The notes under the pieces are model-generated. The model was not told the origin of the DNA, ran no database searches, and was given only the letters and a program-made list of their open reading frames with translations. A stretch of DNA of 40,450 nt from a virus (lineage: Duplodnaviria; Heunggongvirae; Uroviricota; Caudoviricetes). Positions 5,515-40,450 of this stretch are shown here, piece after piece. The position numbers and the translations under genes are program-made. The stretch is from the IMG/VR virus record IMGVR_UViG_2541047969_000017. One strand, 5' to 3'. Each line of letters opens with the position of its first letter. The stretch's first letter is position 1.

Positions 5515-5516
5515 TT

Positions 5517-6005
5517 ATGAGTCTTTTGAATGAAGTTCAGAAATTCATTGAAGCCCATCCGGGGTGTACTTCTGGAGACATTGCGGATGCTTTTGCTGGT
5601 TACTCACGGCAGCGCGTTCTGCAGTCAGCAAGCAAGTTACGTCAGAGTGGGCGTGTGGCTCACCGTTGTGAAGGAGATACACGCAGACATTTCCCGCGCC
5701 TGACTGAGAGAGCGCAGGAGCCGGAACCACAATCTGTTCGTGAAACCAGACCTGTGCGCAATTTCTATGTCGGCACTAACGACCCCCGGGTGATTTTGTG
5801 CCTGACCCGCCTGGCTGAAGAACTGGAGTCCAGGGGCTTATTCCGTCGAGCTGCAACGGTGTGGATGGAGGCATTCCGTGAAAGCCACTCCCAGCCAGAA
5901 CGAAACAATTTTCTGGCGCATCGTGAGCGGTGCTTACGGAAAAGCAGCAAGCGCGCTGCATCGGGTGAAGAGTGGTATCTGTCAGGGAATTACGTGGGGG
6001 CTTAA
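5517..6005 (+). CDS. Putative regulator with N-terminal wHTH-like region and C-terminal PerC-like motif
   Basis: ATG at residue 3 of track ORF 5511..6005, GGGGG Shine-Dalgarno 6 nt upstream. C-terminal LESRGLFRRAATVW matches the PerC/Pch LExKGLWRRAA signature as recalled. Confidence 0.5.
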   Translation: MSLLNEVQKFIEAHPGCTSGDIADAFAGYSRQRVLQSASKLRQSGRVAHRCEGDTRRHFPRLTERAQEPEPQSVRETRPVRNFYVGTNDPRVILCLTRLAEELESRGLFRRAATVWMEAFRESHSQPERNNFLAHRERCLRKSSKRAASGEEWYLSGNYVGA

Positions 6006-6658
6006 TGAGTAATAAATATTGCCAGGCGCTGGTGGAGCTGCGGAACAAACCAGCCCATGAACTGAAGGAAGTGGGCGATCAGTGGCGCACGCCGGACAAC
6101 ATTTTCTGGGGAATTAACACCCTGTTTGGCCCGTTTGTTCTGGATCTGTTTACTGATGGTGATAACGCCAAATGTGCCGCTTATTACACTGCGGAAGACA
6201 ACGCGCTGGCGCATGACTGGTCAGAACGTCTTGCGGAGCTTAAAGGTGCTGCCTTTGGTAATCCCCCATACAGCCGCGCGAGTCAGCATGAGGGGCAATA
6301 CATCACCGGCATGCGTTACATCATGAAGCATGCCAGTGCTATGCGTGATAAAGGCGGGCGCTATGTTTTCCTGATCAAAGCTGCCACCAGCGAAGTGTGG
6401 TGGCCGGAAGATGCAGATCATATTGCTTTTATTCGCGGGCGTATTGGTTTTGAACTGCCTGCCTGGTTTATCCCGAAGGACGAGAAGCAGGTGCCGACAG
6501 GCGCTTTCTTCGCTGGTGCTATTGCTGTTTTCGACAAGACCTGGAAGGGACCGGCAATCAGCTACATCGGGCGCGATGAACTTGAGGCATGTGGTGAGGC
6601 CTTTCTGGCGCAGGTTCGCCAGCAGGCGGAAAAACTGCTCAGGGAGATGGCGGCATGA
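6005..6658 (+). CDS. Phage Dam-type DNA N6-adenine methyltransferase
   Basis: ATG at residue 12 of track ORF 5972..6658, overlapping the upstream stop (TAATG). Motifs WRTPDNIF, DLFTDGDNA and GNPPY are typical of phage Dam methylases. Confidence 0.85.
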   Translation: MSNKYCQALVELRNKPAHELKEVGDQWRTPDNIFWGINTLFGPFVLDLFTDGDNAKCAAYYTAEDNALAHDWSERLAELKGAAFGNPPYSRASQHEGQYITGMRYIMKHASAMRDKGGRYVFLIKAATSEVWWPEDADHIAFIRGRIGFELPAWFIPKDEKQVPTGAFFAGAIAVFDKTWKGPAISYIGRDELEACGEAFLAQVRQQAEKLLREMAA

Positions 6659-6981
6659 CGACATTAACTCAATGCCAGCAGCAGGTGCTGGATATGCTGA
6701 TTTCTTACCAGAAAGAACGTGGCTTCCCGCCAACCAATCAGGAGGTGGCAACCATGCTGGGATACCGTTCAGTGAATGCAGCGGTGGAGCATCTTCGCGC
6801 ACTGGAGAAAAAAGGCGTCATCACGATAAAGCGTGGCGTGGCCCGGGGTATCACTCTTCATACCGCGGTGAAGGACGACGACAGCGAGGCGGTCGGGATT
6901 ATCCGCTCACTGCTTGCCGGTGAGGAAAACGCAAGGCTGCGTGCAACCCACTGGTTACATGAGAGAGGCCTGAAAGTATGA
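6655..6981 (+). CDS. LexA N-terminal-domain-like DNA-binding protein
   Basis: Start overlaps the upstream stop (ATGA). Sequence QQQVLDMLISYQKERGFPPTNQEVATMLGYRSVNAAVEHLRALEKKGVI aligns with the LexA winged-helix domain; no peptidase domain follows. Confidence 0.75.
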   Translation: MTTLTQCQQQVLDMLISYQKERGFPPTNQEVATMLGYRSVNAAVEHLRALEKKGVITIKRGVARGITLHTAVKDDDSEAVGIIRSLLAGEENARLRATHWLHERGLKV

Positions 6982-7367
6982 AGCTGATTCTGCCGTTTCC
7001 GCCCAGCGTGAACACGTACTGGCGACACCCCAACAAAGGGGCGTTTGCAGGTAAGAGCCTGATAAGCGCGGCGGGGCGCAAATTCCAGAGCGCGGCGTGT
7101 GCAGCAATAGTTGAGCAGTTACGTCGTCTGCCAAAACCAACGTCGGCACCTGCTTCAGTGGAGATCGTGTTGTTTCCTCCGGATAACCGGATCCGCGATC
7201 TGGACAACTATAACAAGGCGCTGTTTGACGCCCTGACCCACGCGGGTGTGTGGGAGGACGACAGTCAGGTGAAAAGAATGCTGGTTGAGTGGGGACCGGT
7301 TATCCCGAAAGGGAAGGTCGAGATCACTATCAGTAAGTATGAGAAACCGGCGGGTGCAGCCGCCTGA
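6978..7367 (+). CDS. rusA: Holliday junction resolvase RusA
   Basis: N-terminus MKLILPFPPSVNTYW is the RusA signature; 129 aa; start overlaps the upstream stop. Confidence 0.9.
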   Translation: MKLILPFPPSVNTYWRHPNKGAFAGKSLISAAGRKFQSAACAAIVEQLRRLPKPTSAPASVEIVLFPPDNRIRDLDNYNKALFDALTHAGVWEDDSQVKRMLVEWGPVIPKGKVEITISKYEKPAGAAA

Positions 7368-7386
7368 TTAAGAGGAGAAACGAAGT

Positions 7387-8184
7387 ATGAATAATCTGAT
7401 GGTCATTGATGGTATTGAAGTTCGTCGTGATGCTTATGGTCGTTACAGCCTGAACGATCTTCACAGGGCTGCCGGTTCTCTGGATAAGCATAAGCCTGCA
7501 TTCTGGCTCCGCAATGAGCAAACTGAACATTTAATAAGCGAGTTGCAGATTTGCAACTCGGTCAATATAGAGCCAGTTAACGTTATTCGTGGCGGAAATA
7601 ACCAGGGGACGTATGTCTGCAAAGAACTGGTGTATGCCTATGCAATGTGGATAAGCCCGTCATTCCATCTTAAGGTGATCCGTACTTTCGATATGGTAAC
7701 CAGCGTACCGGAAAAATTATCCGGGCAGGCTGCTGACAAGATGCAGGCTGGTGTGATTCTGCTGGACTTTATGCGCCGGGAATTAAATCTGTCTAACTCT
7801 TCAGTGCTTGGTGCCTGTCAGAAACTCCAGGAGGCTGTTGGCTTACCGAATCTGGCACCGCGCTATGCCATTGATGCTCCTGCTGACGCGCCTGATGGCT
7901 CAAGTCGCCCGACGCTGTCACTGAGTGCACTGCTGAAACAGTATGGTATCCGCCTTACGGCTAATCAGGCATATCACCAGATGGCGAAGCTGGGGATCGT
8001 CGAACAGCGCGAACGATACAGCCGTACAGCGATTAACAACATCAAAAAATTCTGGTCGCTGACGGCGAAAGGCTGCATGTTCGGCAAGAACATCACCAGT
8101 CCTGCAAATCCGCGCGAGACGCAGCCGCATTTCTTCGAATCCCGATTCCCTGAGCTGTTAAAGCTGCTCGATACCGTTCATTGA
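7387..8184 (+). CDS. KilA-N domain protein (antirepressor-like)
   Basis: Track ORF with AAGAGGAGAAA Shine-Dalgarno upstream; N-terminal IDGIEVRRDAYGRYSLNDLHRAAG...KPAFWLR is KilA-N-like. Confidence 0.75.
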   Translation: MNNLMVIDGIEVRRDAYGRYSLNDLHRAAGSLDKHKPAFWLRNEQTEHLISELQICNSVNIEPVNVIRGGNNQGTYVCKELVYAYAMWISPSFHLKVIRTFDMVTSVPEKLSGQAADKMQAGVILLDFMRRELNLSNSSVLGACQKLQEAVGLPNLAPRYAIDAPADAPDGSSRPTLSLSALLKQYGIRLTANQAYHQMAKLGIVEQRERYSRTAINNIKKFWSLTAKGCMFGKNITSPANPRETQPHFFESRFPELLKLLDTVH

Positions 8185-8185
8185 G

Positions 8186-9181
8186 GTGACCGTGAGAGCA
8201 CTACTGACCCCTGAAATTGCCCCGCGTATGGGGATCGTATTGTTCAGACCCGGTTCAGAGCTGATGCCCCTGTTTATGCAGGGGCGTGTCCTGCTGGAGC
8301 CTGAGCCGGAACGTTATTCATCTTTCGCCAGTGGTGCCGTTCCGGCGGCATCACAACCGCTGGCGGATGATCCTGCCGTTCGGGCCGTGTTCCGCAATGA
8401 GGCAGTTATTCGTCGTGCGGGTGGCGTGGAATGTCTTGAAAGCTGGTTACTTCGTGAAAAGGGCTGTCAGTGGCCTCATTCCGACTGGCACAGCGAGAAC
8501 ATGACCACAATGCGACACGCTCCGGGCGCAATCCGTCTGTGCTGGCACTGCGATAACCAGCTGCGCGATCAGTTCACGGAACGGCTGGAATCAATGGCAA
8601 CGGATAACTGTGCCCGCTGGGTGTTGTCTGTTGTGCGTCGGGATCTCGGTTTTGATGACAGTCACGTTGTGACAATGCCGGAACTGTGCTGGTGGCTGAT
8701 TCGTAATGACCTGGCGGATGCCTTACCGGAAAGTGCAGCCCGTAAGGCACTGAGATTACCAAAGCCTGTTGTGCCGTCTGTCACCCGGGAAAGTGACCTT
8801 GTGCCTTCGGTTCCTGCCACCAGCATCATCCAGGATAAAGCGAAAAAGGTGCTGGCGCTGAAAGTGGATCCGGAGTCGCCGGAGTCTTATATGTTACGCC
8901 CAAAACGTCGCCGCTGGGTTAATGAAAAGTACACGCGCTGGGTTAAGACACAGCCGTGTGCATGTTGTGGAAAGCCCGCTGATGATCCCCACCACCTGAT
9001 AGGTCACGGTCAGGGTGGAATGGGAACAAAAGCGCATGACCTTTTTGTGTTGCCTTTGTGCAGAAAGCATCACGACGAGCTGCATGCGGATACCGTGGCA
9101 TTTGAAGAGAAGTATGGCTCCCAGCTGGAGCTGATATTTCGTTTTATCGATCGTGCGCTGGCAATTGGCGTGCTGGCCTGA
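8186..9181 (+). CDS. DUF968-family protein with C-terminal Cys/His (HNH-like) motif
   Basis: Track ORF (GTG start; the true start may be a few codons downstream). C-terminal [21 protein letters not shown]...CRKHHDELH matches DUF968 proteins found upstream of Q in lambdoid prophages (recalled, YdfU-like). Confidence 0.7.
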
Positions 9182-9198
9182 TTTTGTGGAGAAAGTTG

Positions 9199-9564
9199 AT
9201 GCGTGATATTCAAATGGTTCTTGAACATTGGGGGGCATGGGTGGCAAATAATCACGAGGATGTCACCTGGTCGTCTATTGCTGCAGGATTTAAAGGACTA
9301 ATCCCTTCAAAAGTAAAATCCCGCCCGCAATGTTGTGACGATGATGCGATGATCATTTGTGGGTGCATGGCTCGCTTGAAAAAGAACAACAGCGATTTGC
9401 ACGATTTATTAGTGGGTTATTATGTAGGTGGTATGACGTTTATGGCGCTTGCCCGTAAACATGGGCGTTCTGATTGCTGGGTTGGGCGTTTATTGCAAAA
9501 GGCTGAAGGTGTAGTTGATGGCATGTTAATGATGTTAGAAATTGAGCTAGAGATGGATCGTTAG
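9199..9564 (+). CDS. Late-gene antiterminator Q (phage 21 / QuuD-like)
   Basis: ATG at residue 6 of track ORF 9184..9564, GGAGAAAG Shine-Dalgarno upstream. [34 protein letters not shown]...[18 protein letters not shown] closely resembles E. coli QuuD as recalled. Confidence 0.8.
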
Positions 9565-9603
9565 AAGACCTCTTATTGAGGGGGTAATTGAATCAGTTTA
9601 ATG

Positions 9604-9637
9604 TGTGGGGAGTCGATTTATTCTCCCCATTTTATTT
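9604..9637 (+). terminator. Rho-independent terminator downstream of Q
   Basis: Stem tggggag / ctcccca (9606-9612, 9623-9629) with a 10-nt loop, followed by TTTTATTT. Confidence 0.5.
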
Positions 9638-9648
9638 AATTAATTTAC

Positions 9649-10095
9649 TTAAGGTTTTAATTCATCAAGACGTTGTTGGATAGTGTTTTTGCTTGCGTTG
9701 TCTGTTATAGCCATTTGTTGTACTTGCCCCATTGCCATTTGAGTTTCCATCCACATATCGGCCCACACTTTTGTATCGTTATTAACTTGAGCGATAGTAA
9801 ATCTGACTTTTGATACCGGGGTTGTTGAATAGGCATTGCCGATTAACATTTGTCCAAAAACGGCAGAGCCGCCTTCCAGTTCTTTACCACATATAACACT
9901 GCTGTTATCCGCGTTGTAAATTATCAACCCTCTACTATTGCAGTAATTCACAAGGGCATCTTTGACTTTATCTTTTGTCGTATTTTGATAAACCCCCTCA
10001 GGTTTTCCTGATTGAGTTTTCTTTATCAATGGTACGGAAGAAGTACAACCTGAAATGATAGTTGCGCTAAGTAATAGTACAGTTATTTTATTCAT
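9649..10095 (-). CDS. Putative lipoprotein (moron between Q and the late operon)
   Basis: Minus-strand track ORF, 148 aa; signal peptide with lipobox (MNKITVLLLSATIISGC); lower GC than neighbours; antisense to the flanking phage genes. Confidence 0.65.
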   Translation of the reverse strand: MNKITVLLLSATIISGCTSSVPLIKKTQSGKPEGVYQNTTKDKVKDALVNYCNSRGLIIYNADNSSVICGKELEGGSAVFGQMLIGNAYSTTPVSKVRFTIAQVNNDTKVWADMWMETQMAMGQVQQMAITDNASKNTIQQRLDELKP

Positions 10096-10215
10096 GTTTC
10101 TTATCCATTGTTAAGGGCATACCCACACAATTATTTTTATTGGAGATGAATAATCAACCGTTTACAATCGTAAAAAATCAAATATGCTGTTAAGAGTGGT
10201 TACTTCGCCACACAA

Positions 10216-10240
10216 CTTAAACCCGCCGCTGAGCGGTTTT
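10216..10240 (+). terminator. Putative terminator (candidate tR') upstream of the late genes
   Basis: Short GC hairpin in cccgccgctgagcgg followed by a run of seven T. Confidence 0.35.
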
Positions 10241-10365
10241 TTTGTACCTGTAAACTTGGTGCAGTACAGTAAACACGCTGGTGGTCGTGAATACTGACTT
10301 TTTATCTTGCTGGCTTTTTAGACAAGAGTTATTGGTATGTCATGTTAATCAGAAGGGAAAAAGAC

Positions 10366-10569
10366 ATGCTAAAACAGCAAGATATGACAGAAACCGCCGC
10401 CGCAGTCCTTCATTTCTTACCTGCTGACAAGTGGGTAACGCCACGCATGATGACGAGAACTACCGGAGTAAGCGAAGCCCAGTGCCAGTTAATACTGACT
10501 CAGTTAGTTCTGGCGGGTCTGGCGAAGGATAACGGCGGGTACGGGAATAAATTCAGACGCTGCCAGTAA
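10366..10569 (+). CDS. Small putative DNA-binding protein upstream of the methyltransferase
   Basis: ATG at residue 9 of track ORF 10342..10569 with AAGGGAAAAAG upstream; 67 aa; the segment VTPRMMTRTTGVSEAQCQLILTQLVLAGLAK looks helix-turn-helix-like. Confidence 0.45.
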   Translation: MLKQQDMTETAAAVLHFLPADKWVTPRMMTRTTGVSEAQCQLILTQLVLAGLAKDNGGYGNKFRRCQ

Positions 10570-10719
10570 TGGCGGTTTCCTGCTGTGAAAATGGGCGGCT
10601 GGTGGGTGTTGGTAGCACCTGCCAGCCATTCGCTCATGCTTACTGGTCACAAGCGAACCACGGCCCACTGCTTTAGCGCAAAAGCAGAGTGAGCCTACCA
10701 GAGTTACGCTTACTGATCC

Positions 10720-11772
10720 ATGAAAAATACTGTAAGAATAAACAGTGTTGATTTAATCAACGCTGATTGCCTGCATTTTATTCAGTCCCTGCCTGATGAT
10801 TCCATTGACCTGATTGTTACCGATCCGCCGTACTTCAAGGTGAAACCCAACGGCTGGGACAATCAGTGGAAAGGGGACGAAGATTACCTTAAGTGGCTGG
10901 ACCACTGTCTGGCCCAGTTCTGGCGGGTGTTAAAACCTGCCGGAAGCCTTTACCTGTTCTGTGGGCATCGTCTGGCATCTGATATTGAGGTCATGATGCG
11001 TGAACGTTTCAACGTGCTTAACCATATCATCTGGGCGAAGCCGTCCGGACGTTGGAATGGGTGTAATAAAGAAAGTCTGCGCGCATATTTTCCTGCCACA
11101 GAGCGCGTTCTGTTTGCTGAACATTACCAGGGGCCATATCGCGGCAAAAGTGACGGCTATGCGGCAAAAGAAAGGGAACTCAAACAGCACATAATGGCAC
11201 CGCTGATATCGTATTTCAGGGATGCTCGTGCCGAACTGGGTATAACGGCAAAACAAATTGCCGAAGCCACAGGTAAGAAAAATATGGTTTCCCACTGGTT
11301 TGGTGCCAGTCAGTGGCAGTTGCCGAATGAGGCTGACTATCGGAAGTTACAGGCACTGTTTTCCCGTATAGCGGCAGAGAAGTTTCAGGAACAACAACTG
11401 GAACAACCACACCACCAGCTGGTGGCATCTTATGATTCACTGAATCGCAAATATTCTGAATTGCTGGATGAGTTTAAATCTCTCCGGCGCTATTTCTCCG
11501 TATCAGTCTCCGTGCCTTATACCGATGTCTGGATGCATAAACCCGTTCAGTTCTACCCGGGTAAACATCCGTGTGAGAAACCGGCGGATATGCTCAGGCA
11601 AATAATCAATGCCAGTAGTCGACCTGGTGATCTGGTTGCTGATTTTTTTATGGGATCCGGTTCCACAATAAAAGCAGCAATGGCGCTGGGGCGTCGGGCC
11701 TTAGGTGTTGAGCTTGAGTCAGAGCGGTTTAACCAGACAGTGAAAGAGATAAACGAGCTGGTGGGGAAATAA
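10720..11772 (+). CDS. DNA methyltransferase (N6-adenine or N4-cytosine, DPPY-type), no restriction partner
   Basis: Track ORF, 350 aa; motif [10 protein letters not shown] near the N-terminus and motif I FFMGSGST near the C-terminus (beta-class order). No restriction endonuclease ORF nearby. Confidence 0.85.
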
Positions 11773-11778
11773 TTTGGT

Positions 11779-11804
11779 GGCCACGTCAGGTGGCCTTTTT
11801 ATTT
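11779..11804 (+). terminator. Rho-independent terminator between the methyltransferase and the lysis genes
   Basis: Stem ggccac / gtggcc with loop gtcag, followed by TTTTTATTT. Confidence 0.5.
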
Positions 11805-11839
11805 CCATTACACAGCACCCGCATCTGCGAGGTGGGGTT

Positions 11840-12055
11840 ATGAAATCCATGGATAAGTTAACAACGGGTGTCGCCTATGGCACCTCAGCAGGTAGTGCCG
11901 GTTACTGGTTTTTACAGCTGCTCGATAAAGTCACGCCCTCACAGTGGGCAGCAATAGGTGTGCTGGGTAGCCTGGTATTTGGCCTGCTGACGTACCTGAC
12001 AAACCTTTATTTCAAGATTAAAGAAGATAAGCGCAAGGCTGCGAGAGGTGAATAA
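11840..12055 (+). CDS. S: Class II holin / pinholin, S21 family, with dual-start motif
   Basis: ATG at residue 23 of track ORF 11774..12055. [31 protein letters not shown]...[22 protein letters not shown] nearly matches phage 21 S as recalled; the Met-Lys-Ser-Met start is the classic antiholin/holin dual start. Confidence 0.85.
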
Positions 12056-28749: not shown

Positions 28750-31700
28750 ATGGGTAAAGGCAGCAGTAAGGGACATACCCCGCGCGAAGCAAAGGACAAT
28801 CTGAAGTCCACGCAGTTGCTGAGTGTGATCGATGCCATCAGCGAAGGGCCGATTGAAGGTCCGGTGGATGGATTAAAAAGCGTGCTGCTGAACAGTACGC
28901 CGGTGCTGGACAGTGAGGGGAATACCAACATCTCCGGTGTCACGGTGGTGTTCCGGGCAGGTGAGCAGGAACAGACACCGCCGGAGGGATTTGAATCCTC
29001 CGGATCCGAGACGGTGCTGGGTACGGAAGTGAAATACGACACGCCGATCACCCGGACCATCACGTCTGCAAACATCGACCGTCTGCGCTTTACCTTCGGT
29101 GTGCAGGCACTGGTGGAAACCACCTCAAAGGGGGACCGGAATCCGTCGGAAGTCCGCCTGCTGGTTCAGATACAGCGTAATGGTGGCTGGGTGACGGAAA
29201 AAGACATCACCATTAAGGGCAAAACCACCTCGCAGTATCTGGCCTCGGTGGTGGTGGATAACCTGCCGCCGCGCCCGTTTAATATCCGGATGCGCAGAAT
29301 GACGCCGGACAGCACCACAGACCAGCTGCAGAACAAAACGCTCTGGTCGTCATACACCGAAATCATCGATGTGAAACAGTGCTACCCGAACACGGCACTG
29401 GTCGGCGTGCAGGTGGATTCGGAGCAGTTCGGCAGCCAGCAGGTGAGTCGTAATTATCATCTTCGCGGGCGCATTCTGCAGGTGCCGTCGAACTATAACC
29501 CGCAGACGCGACAATACAGCGGTATCTGGGACGGAACGTTTAAGCCAGCATACAGCAACAACATGGCCTGGTGTCTGTGGGATATGCTGACCCATCCGCG
29601 CTACGGCATGGGGAAGCGTCTCGGTGCGGCGGATGTGGACAAATGGGCGCTGTATGTCATCGGCCAGAATTGCGACCAGTCGGTGCCGGATGGCTTTGGT
29701 GGCACGGAGCCGCGCATCACCTGTAATGCCTGGCTGACCACACAGCGCAAGGCGTGGGATGTGCTCAGTGATTTCTGCTCGGCGATGCGCTGTATGCCGG
29801 TATGGAACGGGCAGACGCTGACGTTCGTGCAGGACCGACCATCAGATAAGGTGTGGACCTATAACCGCAGTAATGTGGTGATGCCGGATGATGGCGCGCC
29901 GTTCCGCTACAGCTTCAGCGCCCTGAAGGACCGCCATAATGCCGTTGAGGTGAACTGGATTGACCCGAACAACGGCTGGGAGACGGCGACAGAGCTTGTT
30001 GAAGATACGCAGGCCATTGCCCGTTACGGTCGTAACGTCACGAAGATGGATGCCTTTGGCTGTACCAGCCGGGGGCAGGCGCACCGCGCCGGGCTGTGGC
30101 TGATTAAAACGGAACTGCTGGAAACGCAGACCGTGGACTTCAGCGTGGGTGCGGAAGGGCTTCGCCATGTACCGGGGGATGTCATTGAAATCTGTGATGA
30201 TGACTATGCGGGTATCAGCATCGGCGGGCGCGTGCTGGCGGTGAACAGCCAGACCCGGACGCTGACGCTCGACCGTGAAATCACGCTGCCATCCTCCGGT
30301 ACCACGCTGATAAGTCTGGTTGACGGAAGTGGCAATCCGGTCAGCGTGGAGGTTCAGTCCGTCACCGACGGCGTGAAGGTAAAAGTGAGCCGTGTTCCTG
30401 ACGGTGTTGCTGAATACAGCGTATGGGGGCTGAAGCTGCCGACGCTGCGCCAGCGCCTGTTCCGCTGCGTGAGTATCCGTGAGAACGACGACGGCACGTA
30501 TGCCATCACCGCCGTGCAGCATGTGCCGGAAAAAGAGGCCATCGTGGATAACGGGGCGCACTTTGACGGCGACCAGAGCGGCACGGTGAATGGTGTCACG
30601 CCGCCTGCGGTGCAGCACCTGACTGCCGAAGTCACCTCAGACAGCGGGGAGTATCAGGTGCTGGCGCGCTGGGATACGCCGAAGGTGGTGAAGGGGGTGA
30701 GCTTTATGCTTCGCCTGACCGTGGCAGCGGATGACGGCAGTGAGCGGCTGGTCAGCACGGCCAGGACGACGGAAACCACATACCGCTTCAGGCAACTGGC
30801 GCTGGGGCGTTACACGCTGACGGTCAGGGCGGTAAATGCGTGGGGACAGCAGGGCGATCCGGCATCGGTATCGTTCCGGATTGCCGCACCGGCAGCGCCG
30901 TCGCGGATTGAGCTGACGCCGGGCTATTTTCAGATAACTGCCACGCCGCATCTTGCGGTTTATGATCCGACGGTACAGTTTGAGTTCTGGTTCTCGGAAA
31001 AGCGGATTACCGATATCAGGCAGGTTGAGACCACAGCCCGCTATCTTGGTACGGCGCTGTACTGGATAGCTGCCAGTATCAATATCAAACCGGGCCATGA
31101 TTATTACTTTTATATCCGCAGTGTGAACACCGTTGGCAAATCGGCATTCGTGGAGGCTGTTGGTCAGCCGAGCGATGATGCGGAAGGTTACCTGGATTTT
31201 TTCAAAGGCCAGATAACCGAATCCCATCTCGGCAAGGAGCTGCTGGAAAAAGTCGAGCTGACGGAGGATAACGCCAGCAAACTGGAGGAGTTTTCGAAAG
31301 AGTGGAAGGACGCCAACGATAAATGGAATGCCATGTGGGGCGTCAAAATTGAGCAGACCGAAGACGGCAGGCATTATGTCGCGGGGCTTGGCCTTAGTAT
31401 GGAGGATACGGAGGAAGGCAAACTGAGCCAGTTCCTGGTTGCCGCTAACCGTATCGCGTTTATTGACCCGGCAAACGGGAATGAAACGCCGATGTTTGTG
31501 GCGCAGGGCAACCAGATATTCATGAACGAAGTGTTCCTGAAGTATCTGACGGCTCCCACCATTACCAGTGGCGGCAATCCTCCGGTATTTTCCCTGACAC
31601 CGGACGGGCGGCTGACGGCGAAAAATGCCGATATCAGCGGTAACGTGAATGCGAACTCCGGGACGCTCAATAATGTCACGATTAACGAGAACTGTCGGGT

Positions 31701-32145
31701 TCTGGGAAAACTGTCCGCGAACCAGATTGAAGGCGATCTCGTTAAAACAGTGGGCAAAGCTTTCCCCCGGGACTCCCGTGCACCGGAGCGGTGGCCATCA
31801 GGGACTATTACCGTCAGGGTTTATGACGATCAGTCGTTTGACCGGCAAATTGTTATTCCAGCGGTGGCTTTCTGCGGTGCCAGACATGAGCGGGAGAATA
31901 GCGATACTTATTCGTCATGCCGCCTGATAGTGAAGAAAAACGGGGCTGAAATTTATAACCGAACGGCTCTGGATAATACTCTGATTTACACGGGTGTTAT
32001 TGATATGCCTGCAGGCAGTGGTGTAATGACACTGGAGTTTTCTGTATCAGCATGGTGGGTAAATGGTTGGTATCCCACAGCAAGTATCAGCGATTTGCTG
32101 GTTGTTGTGATGAAGAAAGCCACTGCAGGCATCAGTATCAGCTGA
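28750..32145 (+). CDS. J: Tail tip / host specificity protein J
   Basis: 1131-aa track ORF; [45 protein letters not shown] is the lambda J N-terminus; size and position match. Confidence 0.95.
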
Positions 32146-32212: not shown

Positions 32213-32812
32213 ATGCGTAAATTATGTGCTGTTATTCTGTCCGCAGTAGTCTGGCTGGTTGCCGCTGGTACGCCAGCGAGCGCAGCAGAGCATCAGTCCA
32301 CACTAAGCGCCGGGTATCTTCAGACCCATACTTATATGCCAGGCAGTGATGACCTGAAGGGCATTAACGTGAAATACCGTTATGAATTTACGGACACGCT
32401 GGGGCTGGTGACGTCATTCAGTTATGCAGGATACAAGAATCGTCAGCTGACCCGTTACAGCGATACCCGCTGGCATAAAGATTCCGTGCGTAACCGCTGG
32501 TTCAGCGTGATGGCGGGGCCGTCTGTGCGCGTGAATGAATGGTTCAGCGCGTATGCGATGGCGGGTATGGCTTACAGCCGTGTTTCGACTTTTTCCGGGG
32601 ATTACCTCCGCGTAACTGACAACAAGGGGAAAACGCACGATGTGCTGACCGGAAGTGATGACGGTCGCCACAGCAACACGTCTCTGGCGTGGGGAGCTGG
32701 CGTGCAGTTTAACCCGACCGAATCCGTGGCCATTGATATTGCTTATGAAGGCTCCGGCAGTGGTGACTGGCGCACTGACGGTTTCATCGTGGGTGTCGGT
32801 TATAAGTTCTGA
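32213..32812 (+). CDS. lom: Outer membrane protein Lom (Ail/Lom family)
   Basis: Signal peptide MRKLCAVILSAVVWLVAAGTPASA; C-terminal DIAYEGSGSGDWRTDGFIVGVGYKF identical in character to lambda Lom. Confidence 0.9.
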   Translation: MRKLCAVILSAVVWLVAAGTPASAAEHQSTLSAGYLQTHTYMPGSDDLKGINVKYRYEFTDTLGLVTSFSYAGYKNRQLTRYSDTRWHKDSVRNRWFSVMAGPSVRVNEWFSAYAMAGMAYSRVSTFSGDYLRVTDNKGKTHDVLTGSDDGRHSNTSLAWGAGVQFNPTESVAIDIAYEGSGSGDWRTDGFIVGVGYKF

Positions 32813-32876: not shown

Positions 32877-34145
32877 ATGGCAGCAGTAAAAATCTCAGGT
32901 GTGCTGAAAGATGGTGCGGGAAAACCAATACAGAACTGCACTATTCAACTGAAGGCAAAGCGTAACAGCACCACGGTACTGGTGAACACGGTGGCCTCTG
33001 AAAATCCGGATGAAGCCGGGCGTTACAGCATGGATGTTGAGTATGGCCAGTACAGCGTCATCCTGCTGGTTGAAGGTTTTCCGCCTTCACATGCCGGGAC
33101 CATTACCGTCTATGAAGGCTCCAGACCAGGTACGCTGAATGATTTTCTCGGTGCCATGACGGAAGATGATGTCATGCCGGAGGCATTGCGTCGTTTTGAG
33201 GAAATGGTGGAAGAAGCGGCACGCAACGCTGAAGCCGCCTCTCAGAGCGCAGCGGCGGCAAAGAAATCCGAAACTGCAGCGGCATCATCGAAGAACGCGG
33301 CGAAAACCTCAGAAACGAATGCAGCTAATAGTGCACAGGCGGCAGCGACCTCACAGACTGCATCAGCAAACTCCGCGACAGCAGCCAAAAAATCAGAAAC
33401 CAACGCGAAAAATAGCGAGACAGCCGCAAAGACGAGCGAAACCAACGCAAAGTCCAGCCAGACGGCAGCGAAGACCAGCGAAACGAATGCTAAAGCCAGT
33501 GAAACTGCGGCAAAAAACAGCCAGGTTGCAGCAGCCCAAAGCGAGAGCGCGGCAGCCGGTTCTGCGACTTCAGCAGCTGGATCAGCAACTGCTGCGGCTA
33601 ACAGCCAGAAAGCTGCGAAGACGAGTGAAACTAACGCAAAGTCCAGCCAGACGGCAGCGAAGACCAGCGAAACGAATGCCAAAGCCAGTGAAACTGCGGC
33701 GAAAAGCAGTCAGGATGCAGCGGCCCAAAGCGAGAGTGCCGCAGCCAGTTCTGCAAGTGAGGCGGCGGCTTCTGCTACTGCATCAGCCAACAGTCAAAAA
33801 GCTGCAAAAACCAGTGAAACCAACGCAAAGGCGAGCGAGACTACGGCGGCCAACTCGGCGAAAGCATCCGCTGCAAGCCAGACCGCTGCAAAAGCAAGTG
33901 AAGACGCAGCCAGAGAGTATGCAAGCCAGGCAGCAGATCCGTATAAATATGTCTTACAGCCGCTGCCTGATGTGTGGATACCGTTTAACGATTCACTGGA
34001 TATGATTACGGGCTTTTCGCCATCATATAAAAAGATTGTTATTGGTGACGACGAAATAACGATGCCTGGCGACAAGATTGTTAAGTTTAAACGTGCATCG
34101 AAAGCAACCTATATTAACAAATCTGGTGTGCTGACAGAGGCTGCC
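32877..34145 (+). pseudogene. stf: Side tail fibre gene, N-terminal part, truncated by IS2
   Basis: ATG at residue 3 of track ORF 32871..34148; MAAVKISGVLKDGAGKPIQNCTIQLKAKRNSTTVLVNTVASENPDEAGRYSMDVEYGQYSV matches the lambda Stf N-terminus. The frame ends at TAG 34146-34148, which is the first three bases of the IS2 left end. Confidence 0.8.
33431..33765 (+). repeat. Direct in-frame duplication (~140 bp units, ~190 bp period) inside stf
   Basis: The segment encoding AKTSETNAKSSQTAAKTSETNAKASETAAK..AAAQSESAAA occurs twice (about 33431-33575 and 33621-33765) with only a few mismatches. Confidence 0.5.
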
Positions 34146-34236
34146 TAGACTGGCCCCCTGAATCTCCAGACAACCAATATCACTTAAATAAGTGATAGTC
34201 TTAATACTAGTTTTTAGACTAGTCATTGGAGAACAG

Positions 34237-34602
34237 ATGATTGATGTCTTAGGGCCGGAGAAACGCAGACGGCGTACTACACAGGAAAAGATCGCTATCG
34301 TTCAGCAGAGCTTTGAACCGGGAATGACGGTCTCCCTTGTTGCCCGGCAACATGGTGTGGCAGCCAGCCAGCTATTTCTCTGGCGTAAGCAATACCAGGA
34401 GGGAAGTCTTACTGCTGTGGCTGCCGGAGAACAGGTCGTTCCTGCCTCTGAACTTGCTGCCGCCATGAAGCAGATTAAAGAACTCCAGCGTCTGCTCGGC
34501 AAAAAAACGATGGAAAATGAACTCCTTAAAGAAGCCGTTGAATATGGGCGAGCAAAAAAGTGGATAGCGCACGCGCCCTTATTGCCCGGGGATGGGGAGT
34601 AA
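34237..34602 (+). CDS. insC: IS2 transposase OrfA (InsC)
   Basis: ATG at residue 16 of track ORF 34192..34602; [56 protein letters not shown] matches InsC as recalled. Confidence 0.9.
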
Positions 34603-35465
34603 GCTTCGTCAGCCGTTGTCTCCGGGTGTCGCGTGCGCAGTTGCACGTCATTCTCAGACGAGCCGATGACTGGAAGGACGGCCGCCGCAGCCGTCACACG
34701 GATGATACGGATGTGCTTCGCCGTATACACCATGTTATCGGAGAGCTACCCACATATGGTTATCGTCGGGTATGGGCGCTGCTTCGCAGACAAACAGAAC
34801 TTGATGGTATGCCTGCGATCAATGCCAAACGTGTTTACCGGATCATGCGCCAGAATGCGCTGTTGCTTGAGCGAAAACCCGCTGTACCGCCATCGAAACG
34901 GGCACATACCGGCAGAGTGGCTGTGAAAGAAAGTAATCAGCGATGGTGCTCTGACGGGTTTGAGTTCCGCTGTGATAACGGAGAAAAACTGCGGGTCACG
35001 TTCGCGCTGGACTGCTGTGACCGTGAGGCACTGCACTGGGCGGTCACAACGGGTGGCTTCGACAGTGAAACAGTACAGGACGTCATGCTGGGAGCAGTGG
35101 AACGCCGCTTTGGCAGCGAGCTTCCGGCGTCTCCAGTGGAGTGGCTGACGGATAATGGTTCATGCTACCGGGCGAATGAAACACGTCAGTTCGCCAGGAT
35201 GTTGGGACTTGAACCGAAGAACACGGCAGTGCGGAGTCCGGAGAGTAACGGAATAGCAGAGAGCTTCGTGAAAACGATAAAGCGTGACTACATAAGTATC
35301 ATGCCCAAACCAGACGGGTTAACGGCAGCAAAGAACCTTGCAGAGGCGTTCGAGCATTATAACGAATGGCATCCGCATAGTGCGCTGGGTTATCGCTCGC
35401 CACGGGAATATCTGCGGCAGTGGGCCAGTGATGGGTTAAGTGATAACAGGTGTCTGGAAATATAG
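34560..35465 (+). CDS. insD: IS2 transposase OrfB (InsD), DDE integrase-like
   Basis: Track ORF, 301 aa, beginning [30 protein letters not shown]; overlaps insC in the -1 frame. Confidence 0.9.
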
Positions 35466-35476
35466 GGGCAAATCCA

Positions 35477-36588
35477 CTGCCATTGATGAGCCTCGATTTG
35501 AACGTGATGGCCTGCTTATTGAGGGGAAAAGAACGAACTACATGCTCAATTCGGAAAACCCTGCCAGTTGGGGGCGATCGTCAAATATGGATGTTCCCGA
35601 AACCGGGACGGATAGTTTTGGTTTTACCTATGGAAAGTTTGTCTGTAACGATTCTCTGATTGGGCAAACCTCAGCCATTAATATGGCATCAATTGCTGCA
35701 ACAAAGTCAGTTGATGTCTCAGGCGATAATAAATACGTGACAACCTCATGTCGTTTTAAAACAGAACTGCAGGTAAGGTTGCGTATCCGATTTGATAAAT
35801 ATGACGGTAGCGCAACAACTTTTCTTGGTGATGCGTATATTGATACACAAACGCTTGAAATTAATATGACAGGCGGCGCTGCCTCAAGGATTACAGCGAG
35901 AGTCAGAAAGGACGAAGCTACCGGATGGATTTTTGCAGAGGCAACAATTCAGGCAATTGATGGGGAGTTAAAAATAGGTTCTCAGATACAGTATTCTCCT
36001 AAGCAGGGCGGGGCAACCGTATCTGGTGACTATATTTATCTGGCCACCCCACAAGTAGAAAATGGGCCTTGTGTATCATCTTTTATTATATCAGGAACGA
36101 CGGCGGCGACCCGCGCAAGCGATATAGTTACAGTTCCCATTAAGAATAATCTTTATAATCTTCCTTTTACGGTTCTTTGTGAGGTACATAAGAACTGGTA
36201 TAAAACGCCAAATGCAGCGCCGCGTGTTTTTGACACCGGCGGTCATCAAACCGGAGCGGCTATTATTCTTGGCTTCGGTTCTTCAGCAGATTACGACGGA
36301 TTTCCTTATTGCGATATTGGAGGAGCTAACAGACGGGTAAACGAAAACGCATTGCTTGAAAAAATGGTTATGGGGATGCGTGTAAAGTCAGATCAGTCTA
36401 CGTGCTCAGTAAGTAACGGGCGTATATCCAGCGAAACAAAAACCACATGGTCCTGTATTCAGAACACCGCAATTATCCGTATTGGAGGCCAGACTACAGC
36501 CGGGTTACGTCATTTATTTGGTCATGTCAGGAATTTCAGAATATGGCACAAGGCATTGACTGATGCTCAGGTGGGGGAGTCAATCTAA
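35477..36588 (+). pseudogene. stf: Side tail fibre gene, C-terminal part downstream of IS2
   Basis: Frame open from the IS2 right junction (track ORF 35440..36588 starts inside IS2). Removing IS2 plus one target-repeat copy (1336 bp) joins this frame in phase to the upstream stf frame (..KSGVLTEAA|IDEPRFERDGLLIEGKRTNYML..). Confidence 0.7.
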
Positions 36589-36869
36589 TGAAAGATTTAA
36601 CACTCAAATTTGCCGACAGGGCCGACTTTTCGGCCTTTATGGAGAGTATTGGCTATTATGATGACGAGTCGATGCAGGATGATATTCTTATTGACGTGAT
36701 AGGTAACGCGTACAAAGAAACCGGAGAACTGACTGAAGATGGCGAACCGGTATGTGTTAAGGACGACGGATATTTTGTAAACGTGCGCATCATTAATGAT
36801 GTGAAAACACCATCAATATTCGATGAATACGTGGTTGCTGTTGAGCATCAACTTCGTGGCTGGATGTGA
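36588..36869 (+). CDS. Hypothetical small acidic protein
   Basis: Track ORF, 93 aa; start overlaps the stop of the fibre fragment; no recognisable motif. Confidence 0.5.
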   Translation: MKDLTLKFADRADFSAFMESIGYYDDESMQDDILIDVIGNAYKETGELTEDGEPVCVKDDGYFVNVRIINDVKTPSIFDEYVVAVEHQLRGWM

Positions 36870-36878
36870 GGAAGAAAA

Positions 36879-37919
36879 ATGGCTACATCGACAGTAATTC
36901 CTGATGACATCAAAACGCTAAAATCCGACGTTAGCAAATTAAAAAACGATCAAGGAAGCTACGCAACAAAATCATATGTAGACAGCAAAGATGAAACCGT
37001 TGGTGACTGGTCTGCTTCATGGTATCAGCAGGTATTGCCAACTAGCGGAGCTATATTTGGGAGAAAACTCCGCTCAACTCACAGGACGGCAGGTGTTGAG
37101 GATGCGTATTGCGAACTATACCTCAAAAAATGGATAGACAGTCCAGGTAACGCAATGGCGCGCCTTAACCTGAACGATAACGGGACAAACATTTGCTGGG
37201 ACTTTACCAACCTTTATGGCGGTACGATGATTTTTCCCGGTGACAGCGGATACCTCAAAATGGGTAACTGCCTTATGTCATACAGCAAGCGTGGAAGTAA
37301 CGCGCTTATTAAATTTGATTACACCGACACATTACAGATCAAATATGCCAATCATGGGTCAACCATGACATTAAACACACAGGGAACCGCTCATTCTGGC
37401 GCTACTACTAGTTTGTGGGGTAACTCTACCCGTCCGGTTGTATATGAAGTTGGTGCTGATGGTGGCGCGTATATGTTCTATGCGCAGAAAAATACCGATA
37501 ACACCTATATGTTAAGCGTTAATGGTGCATGTCATGCCACCGCATTTAACCAGCATTCCGACCGGGATCTGAAAGACAACATTCAGGTGATCGATAATGC
37601 AACCGACCGCATCCGTAAAATGAACGGCTATACATACACGCTTAAAGAAAACGGTATGCCCTATGCTGGTGTCATTGCACAGGAAGCACTGGAAGCAATC
37701 CCAGAAGTTGTAGGTTCCGCAATGAAATATCAGGACGGTGCAGGCGGATCGGAAGGTGAAGAAGGTGAACGTTATTACACAGTAGATTATTCTGGTGTTA
37801 CTGGCTTGCTTGTTCAGGTAGCCAGAGAGTCAGACGACAGAATAACAGCACTGGAAGAAGAAAACGCAGAATTAAGACAAAGATTATCTGCAATTGAGGC
37901 GGCGCTTGCGTCTAAATAA
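36879..37919 (+). CDS. Tail fibre/spike-like protein with C-terminal intramolecular chaperone (peptidase S74-like) domain
   Basis: Track ORF, 346 aa, GAGGAAGAAAAATG start; C-terminal ..NQHSDRDLKDNIQVIDNATDRIRKMNGYTYTLKENGMPYAGVIAQEALEAIPEVV.. followed by a coiled coil resembles the self-cleaving chaperone domain of T5 L-shaped fibre and endosialidases (recalled). Confidence 0.7.
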   Translation: MATSTVIPDDIKTLKSDVSKLKNDQGSYATKSYVDSKDETVGDWSASWYQQVLPTSGAIFGRKLRSTHRTAGVEDAYCELYLKKWIDSPGNAMARLNLNDNGTNICWDFTNLYGGTMIFPGDSGYLKMGNCLMSYSKRGSNALIKFDYTDTLQIKYANHGSTMTLNTQGTAHSGATTSLWGNSTRPVVYEVGADGGAYMFYAQKNTDNTYMLSVNGACHATAFNQHSDRDLKDNIQVIDNATDRIRKMNGYTYTLKENGMPYAGVIAQEALEAIPEVVGSAMKYQDGAGGSEGEEGERYYTVDYSGVTGLLVQVARESDDRITALEEENAELRQRLSAIEAALASK

Positions 37920-37925
37920 TATTAA

Positions 37926-37948
37926 GGGGCCGAGCGCCCCGTTTTATT
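37926..37948 (+). terminator. Rho-independent terminator after the second fibre gene
   Basis: Stem ggggc / gcccc with loop cgagc, followed by GTTTTATT. Confidence 0.45.
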
Positions 37949-37955
37949 GGGTAGG

Positions 37956-38255
37956 ATGAAAATGGATATAACACCTTTCCTTCATGCGCTTTGTGCTGCG
38001 GCTGCGCAGCTATTGATTGGTCTTTTTACCGGGAACTGGGCTTACGGGGCGATAGCCGGTTGTACGTTCTTCATTGCGCGCGAACATACCCAGGCAGAAT
38101 ATCGCTGGATTGAAATGTTCGGGCATGGCAAGCGTATGAATATGCCGTGGTGGGGCGGTTTTGATCCTCGTGCATGGGATGTGGCAAGCCTGATGGATTT
38201 TTCTGTGCCGGTGGTGGCGTGTCTGCTGGTCTGGCTGTTGGTTAATCGTGGGTGA
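37956..38255 (+). CDS. Small hydrophobic membrane protein
   Basis: ATG at residue 4 of track ORF 37947..38255 with GGTAGG upstream; two or three predicted hydrophobic helices (LHALCAAAAQLLIGLF, VPVVACLLVWLLV). Confidence 0.5.
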   Translation: MKMDITPFLHALCAAAAQLLIGLFTGNWAYGAIAGCTFFIAREHTQAEYRWIEMFGHGKRMNMPWWGGFDPRAWDVASLMDFSVPVVACLLVWLLVNRG

Positions 38256-38558
38256 AAAAAGGTGAGCTGTATATGCAACGGAGGAAGAAACCTCGTTGCT
38301 GGAAGCCTGGAAGAAGTATCGGGTGTTGCTGAATCGCGTTGATACATCAGTAGCACCGGATACTGAGTGGCCGGAAGAACCAGACACAATGTAAGTGAAA
38401 AAGAAAAAACGCAGACACGACGTATGCAGGACGTGCTGCGGTTGGCTGGTGAACTTTCGATAGTGCGAGTATTGAATGATTTCCAGCCGTTACTGATTTT
38501 ACGCATTTCACGCGCAAGAGAAATTGAACTTTATCCCTCTGTCACCCCATGACGGGGA

Positions 38559-39317
38559 TTAACATTCTGGATTTTTTATTTCTAAATCAGATAAAGCATT
38601 AATTCTTATTTTTTCTAAGGCTTTATCCATGGCCCCCTTGATTCTGTATCCATAATCATCCGGTTCTTCATATTCCTGTGGGGACGGATTTGTACCAATA
38701 TTCTCAATCAATTCATTTAAAATAACTGTTACTTCTTTATTAAGAAGAACTGCTTTAGTTAACATCATCTCTGTTAATGCTGTGAAGGCTAGGCTAAGTT
38801 TCTGTTGTAGCTCTTTATTTTTTAATTTTAGATCTTCATCGTTTAGTGCTTTATCACGGTCTTCGTGAGCCTGTTGTACTTCATCCCAAAACTGCTTTTC
38901 TTGTTCTTGATTAAAATATCCTTGATAACTATTGGCTACATATGTTGGCATCATGTGAATCTCAATAATTTCAAATTCATTATCAGCCCATTTTTTTATA
39001 CTAAGTAACTGTGTGTAAATGTACTCATACATATCGTACTTTTTTTGCCAGATTTGTTGAGAAATCCACAACTCAGAAGTAATCTTTTTTTCTATATCTT
39101 TGATAGTTGTTGTATTTAATGCTAACTGCTTTCTGAGTATTTCATAGTTAGCGTTGGTAGCAGAAATTTTTGCTTTTTCAGTTATAAAAGAAACAATAAA
39201 GTTCACTATGAGAGCTACAATAATAATAGCGAAGCTCAACCCCAAAATCTCTGTGGTTGAGAAATTGGATGACTGTAATGCTTTGATAAGTTCAAAAAAC
39301 TGTTTTTCTGTGAGCAT
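38559..39317 (-). CDS. Hypothetical membrane-anchored protein (N-terminal transmembrane helix, coiled-coil-rich), AT-rich
   Basis: Minus-strand track ORF, 252 aa; one hydrophobic segment ILGLSFAIIIVALIVNFIVSFI near the N-terminus, then a charged Lys/Glu-rich region; composition clearly more AT-rich than the phage backbone. Confidence 0.6.
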   Translation of the reverse strand: MLTEKQFFELIKALQSSNFSTTEILGLSFAIIIVALIVNFIVSFITEKAKISATNANYEILRKQLALNTTTIKDIEKKITSELWISQQIWQKKYDMYEYIYTQLLSIKKWADNEFEIIEIHMMPTYVANSYQGYFNQEQEKQFWDEVQQAHEDRDKALNDEDLKLKNKELQQKLSLAFTALTEMMLTKAVLLNKEVTVILNELIENIGTNPSPQEYEEPDDYGYRIKGAMDKALEKIRINALSDLEIKNPEC

Positions 39318-39415
39318 GGTGCCTTACCAAAAATTAAGACTGTTATCTATATAAAAATGTTACCCAAGAGGGATTGTAATGAAATAACAAACCGGCACAT
39401 TGGCCGGTTTGAAGT

Positions 39416-40450
39416 TCAAGGAGGTGAGATTGTAGAGGCGTTACCTTGTTCTATCACACCAGACCTAATCTTGTAACTACCAAGGATGTTGACCGTTTTA
39501 TTATTTTTCATCGCGTCAAAAATTAAGCCTATTTCATCAGGGTCATTGATAAAACTGGTATCAACATAGATCGGGAATGAATCATCACCTGTTGGCTCAT
39601 GGCAGCTTAACGTTAGCTTATCGGCTGAGCGTTTTATACTATCAATGACAACTTCCAATGTTTGCTGCTCTGACTTAGCCTTTTCAATTGGGTTCTTGAT
39701 GATTTCTTGAACCTGACCTTGCGAAAGTTCAATATTGCTGGCCCCGCGGATCGTCACTTTGTCTGCATCAGATGCACCTTTAAGAACTCCAGTGTATGCC
39801 TTAGCGGTGTGCTCTTGGATACCTTCGGCGCGCTCTATCGTATCAATACCTTCATGTGCTTTTATTGCAGACAGCATACCATCGCGTAGAATTGTCATCC
39901 GCTCGGATTCTGCTCGCTGTTTTGCTTCTTCCTGTTGTAACTCAATAGTTTTGGTTTCGACTTGTGTCTGATGATCTAAGTAGGACGTACCGACCCATGC
40001 GCCGCCTAAAACTAAGACAGCAAACAGGAAACACATTGTTTTCTGTCTTGGGCTCATACCTTGTGTTACCTTCTCAAATGCGTTACCAAAGGAATCAATA
40101 AGTTCTTTAACTGAGGTGATAATTTCTGTACAGCCAGGTTTGATAGTAAAAACCAACTCTGCAGCTTCTCTATCCTCAGCAGTGAGCTTCTGTAAGTTAG
40201 AGGTTTTGTACTTGATTAGAGTAAAAACCTTGTACATCTCAGTTTGAAATTCACAAATACCCTGTGCCAAACCTGCAGGCAGAGTACCATTATACTTATC
40301 TTCATCACCAAAAAATTTGAAATCAATACTTTCTAAGAAGTTTAACTTCAAATTTTCAATGTGGATTTCTTCGCCTGAAATAACTCGGTCGAAAATATTT
40401 CCTATATCATCAATATCATTGATTTCATAGGTCTGAATTGCATCTTCCAT
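39416..40450 (-). CDS. Hypothetical membrane protein with one central transmembrane segment, AT-rich; start at or beyond the window edge
   Basis: Minus-strand track ORF, 344 aa, whose first codon is the last three bases of the window, so the true N-terminus may lie outside; central hydrophobic segment MCFLFAVLVLGGAWVGTSYL; no recognisable catalytic motif. Confidence 0.55.
   Translation of the reverse strand: MEDAIQTYEINDIDDIGNIFDRVISGEEIHIENLKLNFLESIDFKFFGDEDKYNGTLPAGLAQGICEFQTEMYKVFTLIKYKTSNLQKLTAEDREAAELVFTIKPGCTEIITSVKELIDSFGNAFEKVTQGMSPRQKTMCFLFAVLVLGGAWVGTSYLDHQTQVETKTIELQQEEAKQRAESERMTILRDGMLSAIKAHEGIDTIERAEGIQEHTAKAYTGVLKGASDADKVTIRGASNIELSQGQVQEIIKNPIEKAKSEQQTLEVVIDSIKRSADKLTLSCHEPTGDDSFPIYVDTSFINDPDEIGLIFDAMKNNKTVNILGSYKIRSGVIEQGNASTISPP

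Follow-up and report, generated by a model that had tools for sequence, protein, structure and literature searches.

The window, a 40,450-nucleotide stretch of DNA from a virus (Caudoviricetes; IMG/VR record IMGVR_UViG_2541047969_000017), contains a late operon in which J (28750-32145) and lom (32213-32812) are followed by the side tail fibre gene, stf, from position 32877. The stf gene is in two pieces, separated by a complete 1331-bp IS2 (34146-35476, + strand) whose transposase genes run in the same direction as stf. The 5′ part (32877-34145, + strand) holds codons 1-423, which encode a collar domain and a shaft of Ala/Ser/Thr-rich repeats. The 3′ part (35482-36588, + strand) is in phase with it and holds codons 424-791, which encode the distal domain, and the stop codon, but has no translation start of its own. 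Downstream lie a 93-aa ORF (36588-36869, + strand; phrog_1361, unknown function), whose ATG overlaps the stf stop codon (TAATG), and the gene for a second fibre protein of 346 aa (36879-37919, + strand). This second fibre matches phrog_4563 (tail fiber) over its full length and carries a C-terminal intramolecular chaperone domain (PF13884, Peptidase_S74) at residues 227-278. J, lom, the 93-aa ORF and the 346-aa fibre are also the neighbours of stf in a prophage of E. coli UTI89, where the order and annotation of J, lom and stf are the same.

To set the boundaries of the element independently of the flanking repeats, we used an ungapped alignment with K-12 IS2A (NC_000913.3 381260-382590). The two copies differ by 57 substitutions and no indels (95.7% identity), and are the same over the first 132 and the last 26 nt. 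The termini read TAGACTGG... and ...GCAAATCCA, and the two ends match each other in a gapped alignment, giving a left inverted repeat (IRL) of 42 bp at 34146-34187 (+ strand) and a right inverted repeat (IRR) of 41 bp at 35436-35476 (− strand) that ends ...TCCA-3′. IS2 is known to have inverted repeats of these lengths, with an atypical TA end at IRL and a CA end at IRR (PMC3299598); in the window's copy, the outer end of IRL is TA on the transferred strand, the end at IRR is CA, and both are intact.

Both transposase genes are open and full length, as a sequence-only reading of this DNA had proposed. The protein encoded by orfA (InsC, the helix-turn-helix TnpA repressor; 34237-34602, + strand; 121 aa) is identical to K-12 InsC1; it matches NF006928 over residues 1-121 of 121 with 276 bits, against an IS2-specific NCBIfam cut-off of 229, and also matches PF01527. 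The orfB gene (InsD; 34560-35465, + strand) encodes 301 aa with a DDE/rve catalytic domain (PF00665, PF13683), matches NF006918 over residues 1-301 of 301 (696 bits; cut-off 597), and differs from K-12 InsD1 by 14 substitutions, with no stop codon or frameshift. In the overlap of the two genes lies the slippery sequence A AAA AAG (34554-34560, + strand). Its AAA AAG codons in orfA occupy 34555-34560 and the orfB frame opens at GTG 34560; checked by hand, the frames fit a −1 programmed frameshift that would yield an OrfAB transposase of ~409 aa. Thus, the window's copy shares with K-12 IS2A the length of 1331 bp, the absence of indels, OrfA, the 301-aa rve/DDE OrfB, the A6G site, the imperfect 42- and 41-bp repeats and the 5-bp target duplication, which together identify it as IS2, of the IS2 group in the IS3 family. 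It differs from the K-12 element in being a variant that is found, 100% identical, in other E. coli chromosomes and plasmids, for example in PA45B, UPEC 26-1 and large plasmids thereof. From its intact sequence, the copy looks competent for transposition and is probably still mobile.

On recount, the direct repeat CTGCC lies immediately outside the element at 34141-34145 and 35477-35481, so that the span 34141-35481 comprises IS2 and both repeat copies. The repeat extends no further than 5 bp, since the next base outward is G on one side and A on the other. Because the IS2 boundaries were fixed independently, the chance that five flanking bases would match is ~1/1024. The intact counterpart of the gene, UTI89_RS24915 ("prophage tail fiber N-terminal domain-containing protein"), lies in the prophage next to prfC in E. 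coli UTI89 and NU14. The UTI89 gene has no IS2 and contains CTGCC once, and the two BLAST segments that flank the element overlap by exactly 5 bp in this subject. As controls, K-12 IS2A is flanked by a 5-bp duplication (ATTAC), and five other loci with IS2 in stf each have 5-bp repeats.

At the left junction, the stf frame, whether read from ATG 32877 or from an alternative start at GTG 32871, terminates at TAG 34146-34148. These are the first three bases of IS2, just as the sequence-only reading had it. Excision of 34146-35481 in silico rejoins the flanks, which had been expected to give about 790 codons, in a frame that stays open up to its only stop codon, at the end, and encodes 791 aa from the ATG or 793 aa from the GTG. 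RefSeq uses the ATG. The reconstructed gene is identical at 2376 of 2376 nt to the intact alleles of UTI89 (UTI89_RS24915, WP_000741755.1) and GU2018_CL13.

The reconstructed protein matches phrog_1419 over its full length. PF08400 covers residues 3-132 (E 6e-67), residues 3-95 match the collar of Ur-lambda Stf, its tail-docking domain (residues 1-94; PDB 9E7M/9MGH; E 4e-50), and KTSETNAK-type Ala/Ser/Thr-rich repeats are visible at approximately residues 110-350. As in lambda, the gene follows J and lom and encodes a homologous N-terminal collar. The distal part is different: whereas that of lambda is gp37-like, we found no gp37-like tip here, and residues 435-635 are instead covered by NF048003 (GTA_spike_fiber), a domain that begins 12 codons past the cut. 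The distal part also matches, weakly, the RcGTA head spike fibre (6TB9; E 1.5e-4). A lambda-type tfa gene, for the Tfa assembly chaperone, is not intact downstream; only a pseudogene remnant is annotated in UTI89. By its anchor and position, we regard the window's gene as an Stf that carries another kind of distal module. Annotated (side or lateral) tail fibres of the isolated phages ESCO3, 2G7b, Tritos, phage 21 and mEp460 share 71-99% identity with the distal 368 aa. This homology suggests that the distal part is conserved, and used as a fibre, in viable phages.

How old is the insertion? Upstream of it, 26 kb of the window (8131-34145) are 100% identical to UTI89, with no differences. Between 35477 and 40450 there are three differences, none of them in stf. 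When we searched 5,426 complete E. coli genomes, neither junction between stf and IS2 was present in any of them, and a search with the 40-nt left junction (GGTGTGCTGACAGAGGCTGCCTAGACTGGCCCCCTGAATC) gave no match in GTDB species representatives or JGI metagenome contigs. Because the junction occurs in none of the 5,426 genomes and the upstream 26 kb match UTI89 perfectly, the insertion appears to be young. The sequence-only reading had suggested this from the clean repeat and intact flanks, and the comparisons make the case stronger than it was then, although "recent" is a relative term that derives from zero divergence and not from a dated phylogeny. That the exact junction occurs in no other public sequence searched would also be expected if the IS2 copy were an assembly artefact, either a misplaced repeat or a chimeric contig. 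However, a misplaced repeat would not generate an exact 5-bp duplication of bases that occur once in the uninterrupted gene, nor would it leave the flanks in phase and base-perfect, and we consider an artefact extremely improbable.

The two prophages are not the same throughout, as the window's has a different early/immunity region (1199-5173). When positions 1-12000 were used as a query, no genome covered more than 67%, and therefore the immunity region is a different piece of the mosaic. The 93-aa ORF has three substitutions at 12-nt intervals, for which we considered targeted hypermutation and rejected it, as the window has the common allele state of other prophages.

We are highly confident that IS2 recently inserted into stf of a UTI89-type lambdoid prophage adjoining prfC and cut the fibre after codon 423. 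In the normal IS2 pathway, the element would have been copied out to a minicircle and then joined to a target cut with a 5-bp stagger, which would have duplicated CTGCC. Translation of stf would then end at TAG, the first triplet of IS2, and therefore the cell should be able to make only a stub consisting of the collar and shaft. The distal 368 residues, which carry the putative receptor-binding domain, would have no start signal for their translation. If virions are produced, they would be expected to have no working side fibres and to rely on J, the central fibre.

The cut removes residues 424-791 and with them all of the distal domain, so that loss of fibre function can be inferred on good grounds, and the sequence-only reading had sound reason to call the fibre probably non-functional. 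A precedent exists in lambda PaPa, whose stf carries a frameshift: the side fibres are lost and adsorption slows 10-30 fold, while the phage stays viable and plaque number is unchanged (PMC12617516). As here, the PaPa lesion falls close to mid-gene and separates the collar and shaft from the distal receptor-binding part, although it is a 1-bp frameshift rather than an IS insertion. The fibre could nonetheless retain partial function if the 423-residue stub were sufficient, or if the distal 368 residues were translated from a new start, either GTG 35440 within IS2 or an ATG near 35541, and then joined the stub. An ORF of 382 aa (35440-36588) is indeed open in the stf frame. In lambdoid phages, polymerase that Q has made resistant to terminators transcribes the late operon, and the window has a Q gene at approximately 9199-9564; therefore, the distal part of stf is probably still transcribed. 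Translation of this part is another matter. TAA (35437-35439) lies directly 5′ of GTG 35440, no Shine-Dalgarno sequence or other ribosome-binding site was evident by eye before either candidate start, and no outward promoter was predicted at the right end of IS2. In addition, trimeric fibres fold as continuous chains, and the comparable split of stf in lambda PaPa leaves no side fibres. We therefore consider a partly functional fibre very unlikely, although the stub might assemble as a collar with some structural role.

Loss of the side fibre led the sequence-only reading to assign tropism to J and the second fibre protein. This holds for J, which is untouched. The 346-aa fibre is less secure, as its expression or attachment could also be affected: its gene follows IS2 in the same operon and comes after the 93-aa ORF that overlaps the stf stop codon. 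From this overlap, the 93-aa ORF is likely to be translationally coupled to stf. Consequences of the insertion for the downstream genes may include reduced expression of both the 93-aa ORF and the second fibre.

Disruption of stf by IS2 is a real but ordinary event of a recurrent kind. Other genomes have orthologous fibre genes in which IS2 occupies no fewer than eight further positions, in both orientations. Five of the split orthologues (NZ_CP178659.1, NZ_LR882057.1, NZ_CP122600.1, NZ_CP085063.1 and NZ_CP097198.1) resemble the window's gene in carrying a full-length IS2 with a 5-bp duplication. They differ from it in the position of the insertion and in the duplicated pentamer, and in carrying K-12-type IS2, ~95.5-95.8% identical to the window's copy. 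Duplications at insertions in the same orientation as the window's are AATAT, GGTTG (after nt 1569), ATAGG (after nt 1766) and TCTTC (after nt 1951), the last found in two strains, one from a chicken in South Africa and the other from a pig in the Netherlands. An apparent orientation bias proved to be an artefact of query ascertainment, which had returned only co-oriented insertions; when the query was reversed, opposite-orientation insertions were recovered from 16 genomes, at a minimum of three spacings, and we rejected the bias.

Could the stf family be a preferred or positively selected target of IS2, such that side fibres are recurrently, and possibly adaptively, inactivated, or even switched on and off by precise excision across the 5-bp repeats? 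The occurrence of other insertions at differing positions and in both orientations is in keeping with this idea, and a rough neutral expectation, assuming ~450 genomes with the allele, ~4 IS2 copies in each and a 2.4-kb gene in a 5-Mb genome, is less than one event. However, insertions are tolerated in prophage accessory genes but not in most of the chromosome, and enrichment would therefore be expected even if there were neither targeting nor selection. The same differences in site, duplicated sequence and orientation also argue against any specific hot spot, and 13 of the 16 opposite-orientation genomes share one spacing, which probably reflects one inherited event. Preferred or selected targeting of the family is accordingly unlikely in our view. 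We also give little credence to the proposal that the distal half of Stf genes is a regional hot spot or a recurrently selected target, with side fibres repeatedly lost and then regained by precise excision and the window representing one of nine or more independent events.

An ordinary, recent IS2 insertion raises no new issue for transposition or phage biology, but it has practical uses. Its junction, unique among 5,426 complete genomes, makes it a clean and datable strain marker, and the prophage can be described as side-fibre-defective with late genes otherwise identical to those of the UTI89 prophage. Since UTI89 has an isogenic intact allele, the insertion is also a natural knock-out of stf with which binding by the non-lambda distal domain could be tested. 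RefSeq annotates the halves of IS2-split stf orthologues as two pseudogene fragments; in the window, the two pieces of stf should be annotated together, as a single IS-disrupted pseudogene.

We read the region 33900-35700 of the window and recounted it by script. The side tail fibre gene stf is interrupted there by two copies of CTGCC (34141-34145 and 35477-35481) separated by exactly 1331 bp (34146-35476), which start TAGACTGGCCCCC and finish GGGGCAAATCCA. The repeat extends over 5 bp and no further, since the sixth base outward is not the same on the two sides. The upstream stf frame, which opens at GTG 32871 or at the RefSeq ATG 32877, is stopped by a TAG (34146-34148) that is the first triplet of the element. 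When 34146-35481 was deleted in silico, a single open frame resulted, ending with the stop codon at 36586-36588 and comprising 793 codons from the GTG or 791 from the ATG; in the reconstructed protein, ...GVLTEAA is followed directly by IDEPRFERDG.... The recount bore out every countable claim of the sequence-only reading, which had described a 1331-bp IS2 flanked by two CTGCC copies, an stf stop supplied by its first three bases, and in-phase flanks giving about 790 codons. The feature is real, and both its description and its interpretation were correct.

Judged by its sequence, the inserted element is IS2. It aligned end to end and without gaps to K-12 IS2A (NC_000913.3 381260-382590), with 57 substitutions (95.7% identity) and the same first 132 and last 26 nt. 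Its ends show the published peculiarity of IS2, a 42-bp IRL ending in TA and a 41-bp IRR ending in CA (PMC3299598), and the K-12 copy also has a 5-bp flanking duplication, ATTAC. As had been claimed, both transposase ORFs are intact: OrfA (34237-34602, 121 aa) matches InsC1 at every residue, and OrfB (34560-35465, 301 aa) differs from K-12 by 14 substitutions, none of them a stop. Both cover the full model length and exceed the IS2-specific NCBIfam cut-offs (NF006928, 276 bits against 229, for OrfA; NF006918, 696 against 597, for OrfB), with the expected Pfam domains HTH_Tnp_1, rve, and rve_3. A slippery site, A AAA AAG (34554-34560), lies where the frame layout allows a -1 shift to yield OrfAB. 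Other E. coli, PA45B and UPEC 26-1 among them, carry 100% identical copies of the element on chromosomes and large plasmids, and 4,900 of 5,426 complete E. coli genomes contain IS2-like sequence.

A lambdoid prophage of the UTI89 type, adjoining prfC, makes up the window. Using a 1400-nt empty-site query in which both flanks were joined in silico, we obtained one continuous match over at least 80% of its length in 448 genomes; GU2018_CL13 matched at 100%. The reconstructed 2376-nt stf is base for base the allele of GU2018_CL13 and of UTI89 (UTI89_RS24915, WP_000741755.1). As the two stf halves overlap by 5 bp on UTI89, that strain holds a single CTGCC. UTI89 is 100% identical across window 8131-34145, where every lysis, head, and tail gene lies, and differs at 3 bases across 35477-40450. 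Although the rest of the prophage is near-identical, the early/immunity region (1199-5173) is unrelated to its UTI89 counterpart. No complete E. coli genome covered more than 67% of window 1-12000; this mosaic combination is therefore absent from the complete-genome collection.

None of the 5,426 complete E. coli genomes contained either the left or the right junction as a continuous match, nor was the 40-nt left junction found in GTDB species representatives or JGI metagenome contigs. Since, in addition, both stf halves show zero divergence and the duplication and element are intact, these data indicate a young, strain-specific insertion, inferred rather than dated, in agreement with the recent origin proposed earlier.

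A junction search of the same genomes revealed IS2 adjoining related stf genes in seven further genomes. We retrieved and mapped five of these loci, and in all five IS2 is full length and flanked by a 5-bp duplication of its own: AATAT, GGTTG (after nt 1569), ATAGG (after nt 1766), or TCTTC (after nt 1951). Two unrelated-looking strains, from a South African chicken and a pig in the Netherlands (L007, NZ_CP178659.1, 4083-5413; L009, NZ_CP122600.1, 4079-5409), have IS2 at the TCTTC site, reflecting either an inherited prophage in common or a repeat hit at one site. An apparent orientation bias proved to be an artefact of the query, as reversing IS2 in the query matched 16 additional genomes with at least three spacings; both orientations thus exist. 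In all, at least eight other positions in orthologous fibre genes are interrupted by IS2, with both orientations represented. Such disruption of the fibre family by IS2 is a recurrent, already annotated kind of event, and the present insertion adds one more case to a well-known phenomenon rather than a new kind. The recurrence may mean no more than that dispensable prophage genes tolerate insertions; it is also possible that the family is an IS2 hot spot or under selection.

To define what is lost, we examined the architecture of the intact protein, which matches phrog_1419 end to end. Residues 3-132 form the Pfam prophage tail fibre N-terminal domain, and residues 3-95 match (E 4e-50) the Ur-lambda side-fibre collar, known from cryo-EM (PDB 9E7M/9MGH; PMC12617516). 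These matches and the gene's place behind J and lom together justify the name stf. Residues ~110-350, repeats rich in Ala, Ser, and Thr, are presumably the shaft. Whereas the distal domain of the lambda side fibre is related to T4 gp37, residues 424-791 (35482-36585) are not. NF048003, the 'GTA head spike fiber' domain, covers residues 435-635 (50 bits), and the distal part weakly matches the Rhodobacter capsulatus gene transfer agent head spike fibre (6TB9, E 1.5e-4), to which the distal domain is, on these matches, related. Annotated fibre proteins from phage isolates, among them ESCO3, 2G7b, Tritos, phage 21, and mEp460, share 71-99% identity with the distal 368 residues, so the intact protein is in use by viable phages. 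A 90.5% identical copy of the distal domain is also encoded in a 99.9-kb record that lacks annotation and bears the name 'Campylobacter phage C13' (H169, MG065692.1, 63369-64472); an E. coli fibre domain is odd for such a phage and suggests that the record is mislabelled or contaminated.

IS2 cuts stf after codon 423, 12 codons ahead of the distal domain, leaving a product of collar and shaft with zero extra residues. In the distal fragment, a TAA (35437-35439) directly precedes the first possible start, GTG 35440, before which no ribosome-binding site was visible on reading the sequence, and no outward promoter was predicted. Besides its uses for annotation and as a strain marker, the insertion provides a naturally occurring knock-out of a distal fibre domain unlike that of lambda, for which an isogenic intact allele exists.

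Lambdoid late operons are transcribed by Q-modified polymerase, and the UTI89 region identical to the window's has an annotated Q gene; transcriptional polarity of IS2 is therefore probably limited. The start of a 93-aa ORF (36588-36869) overlaps the stf stop, 2.4 kb downstream of the point of insertion (TAATG, 36586-36590), which suggests translational coupling that IS2 would break. Since loss of coupling could lower expression of this ORF and of the 346-aa second fibre, which begins 10 nt past its stop and carries a Peptidase_S74 chaperone domain, the proposal that tropism rests on J, the central fibre, and the second fibre is at most plausible. In lambda PaPa, an stf frameshift removes the side fibres and slows adsorption 10-30x while titres stay the same (PMC12617516); by analogy, the prophage should still be able to form infectious, J-dependent particles. 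Because siphovirus lateral fibres are often required for crossing the O-antigen layer (PMC11990801), their loss may be more consequential on smooth hosts than for lambda on K-12.

The three differences from UTI89 downstream of IS2 (36709, 36721, and 36733) all fall in the 93-aa ORF, at second codon positions spaced exactly 12 nt apart (A/V, T/N, T/N). We ruled out hypermutation, as the window has the common state among five other prophage alleles; the differences are thus a short conversion patch or ordinary polymorphism between alleles. A remnant of a tail fibre assembly (tfa) gene without its N terminus lies beyond the second fibre gene (~38275-38394), as known from the annotation of the identical UTI89 region (UTI89_RS27715 equivalent), and may be a trace of a past exchange of the fibre module.
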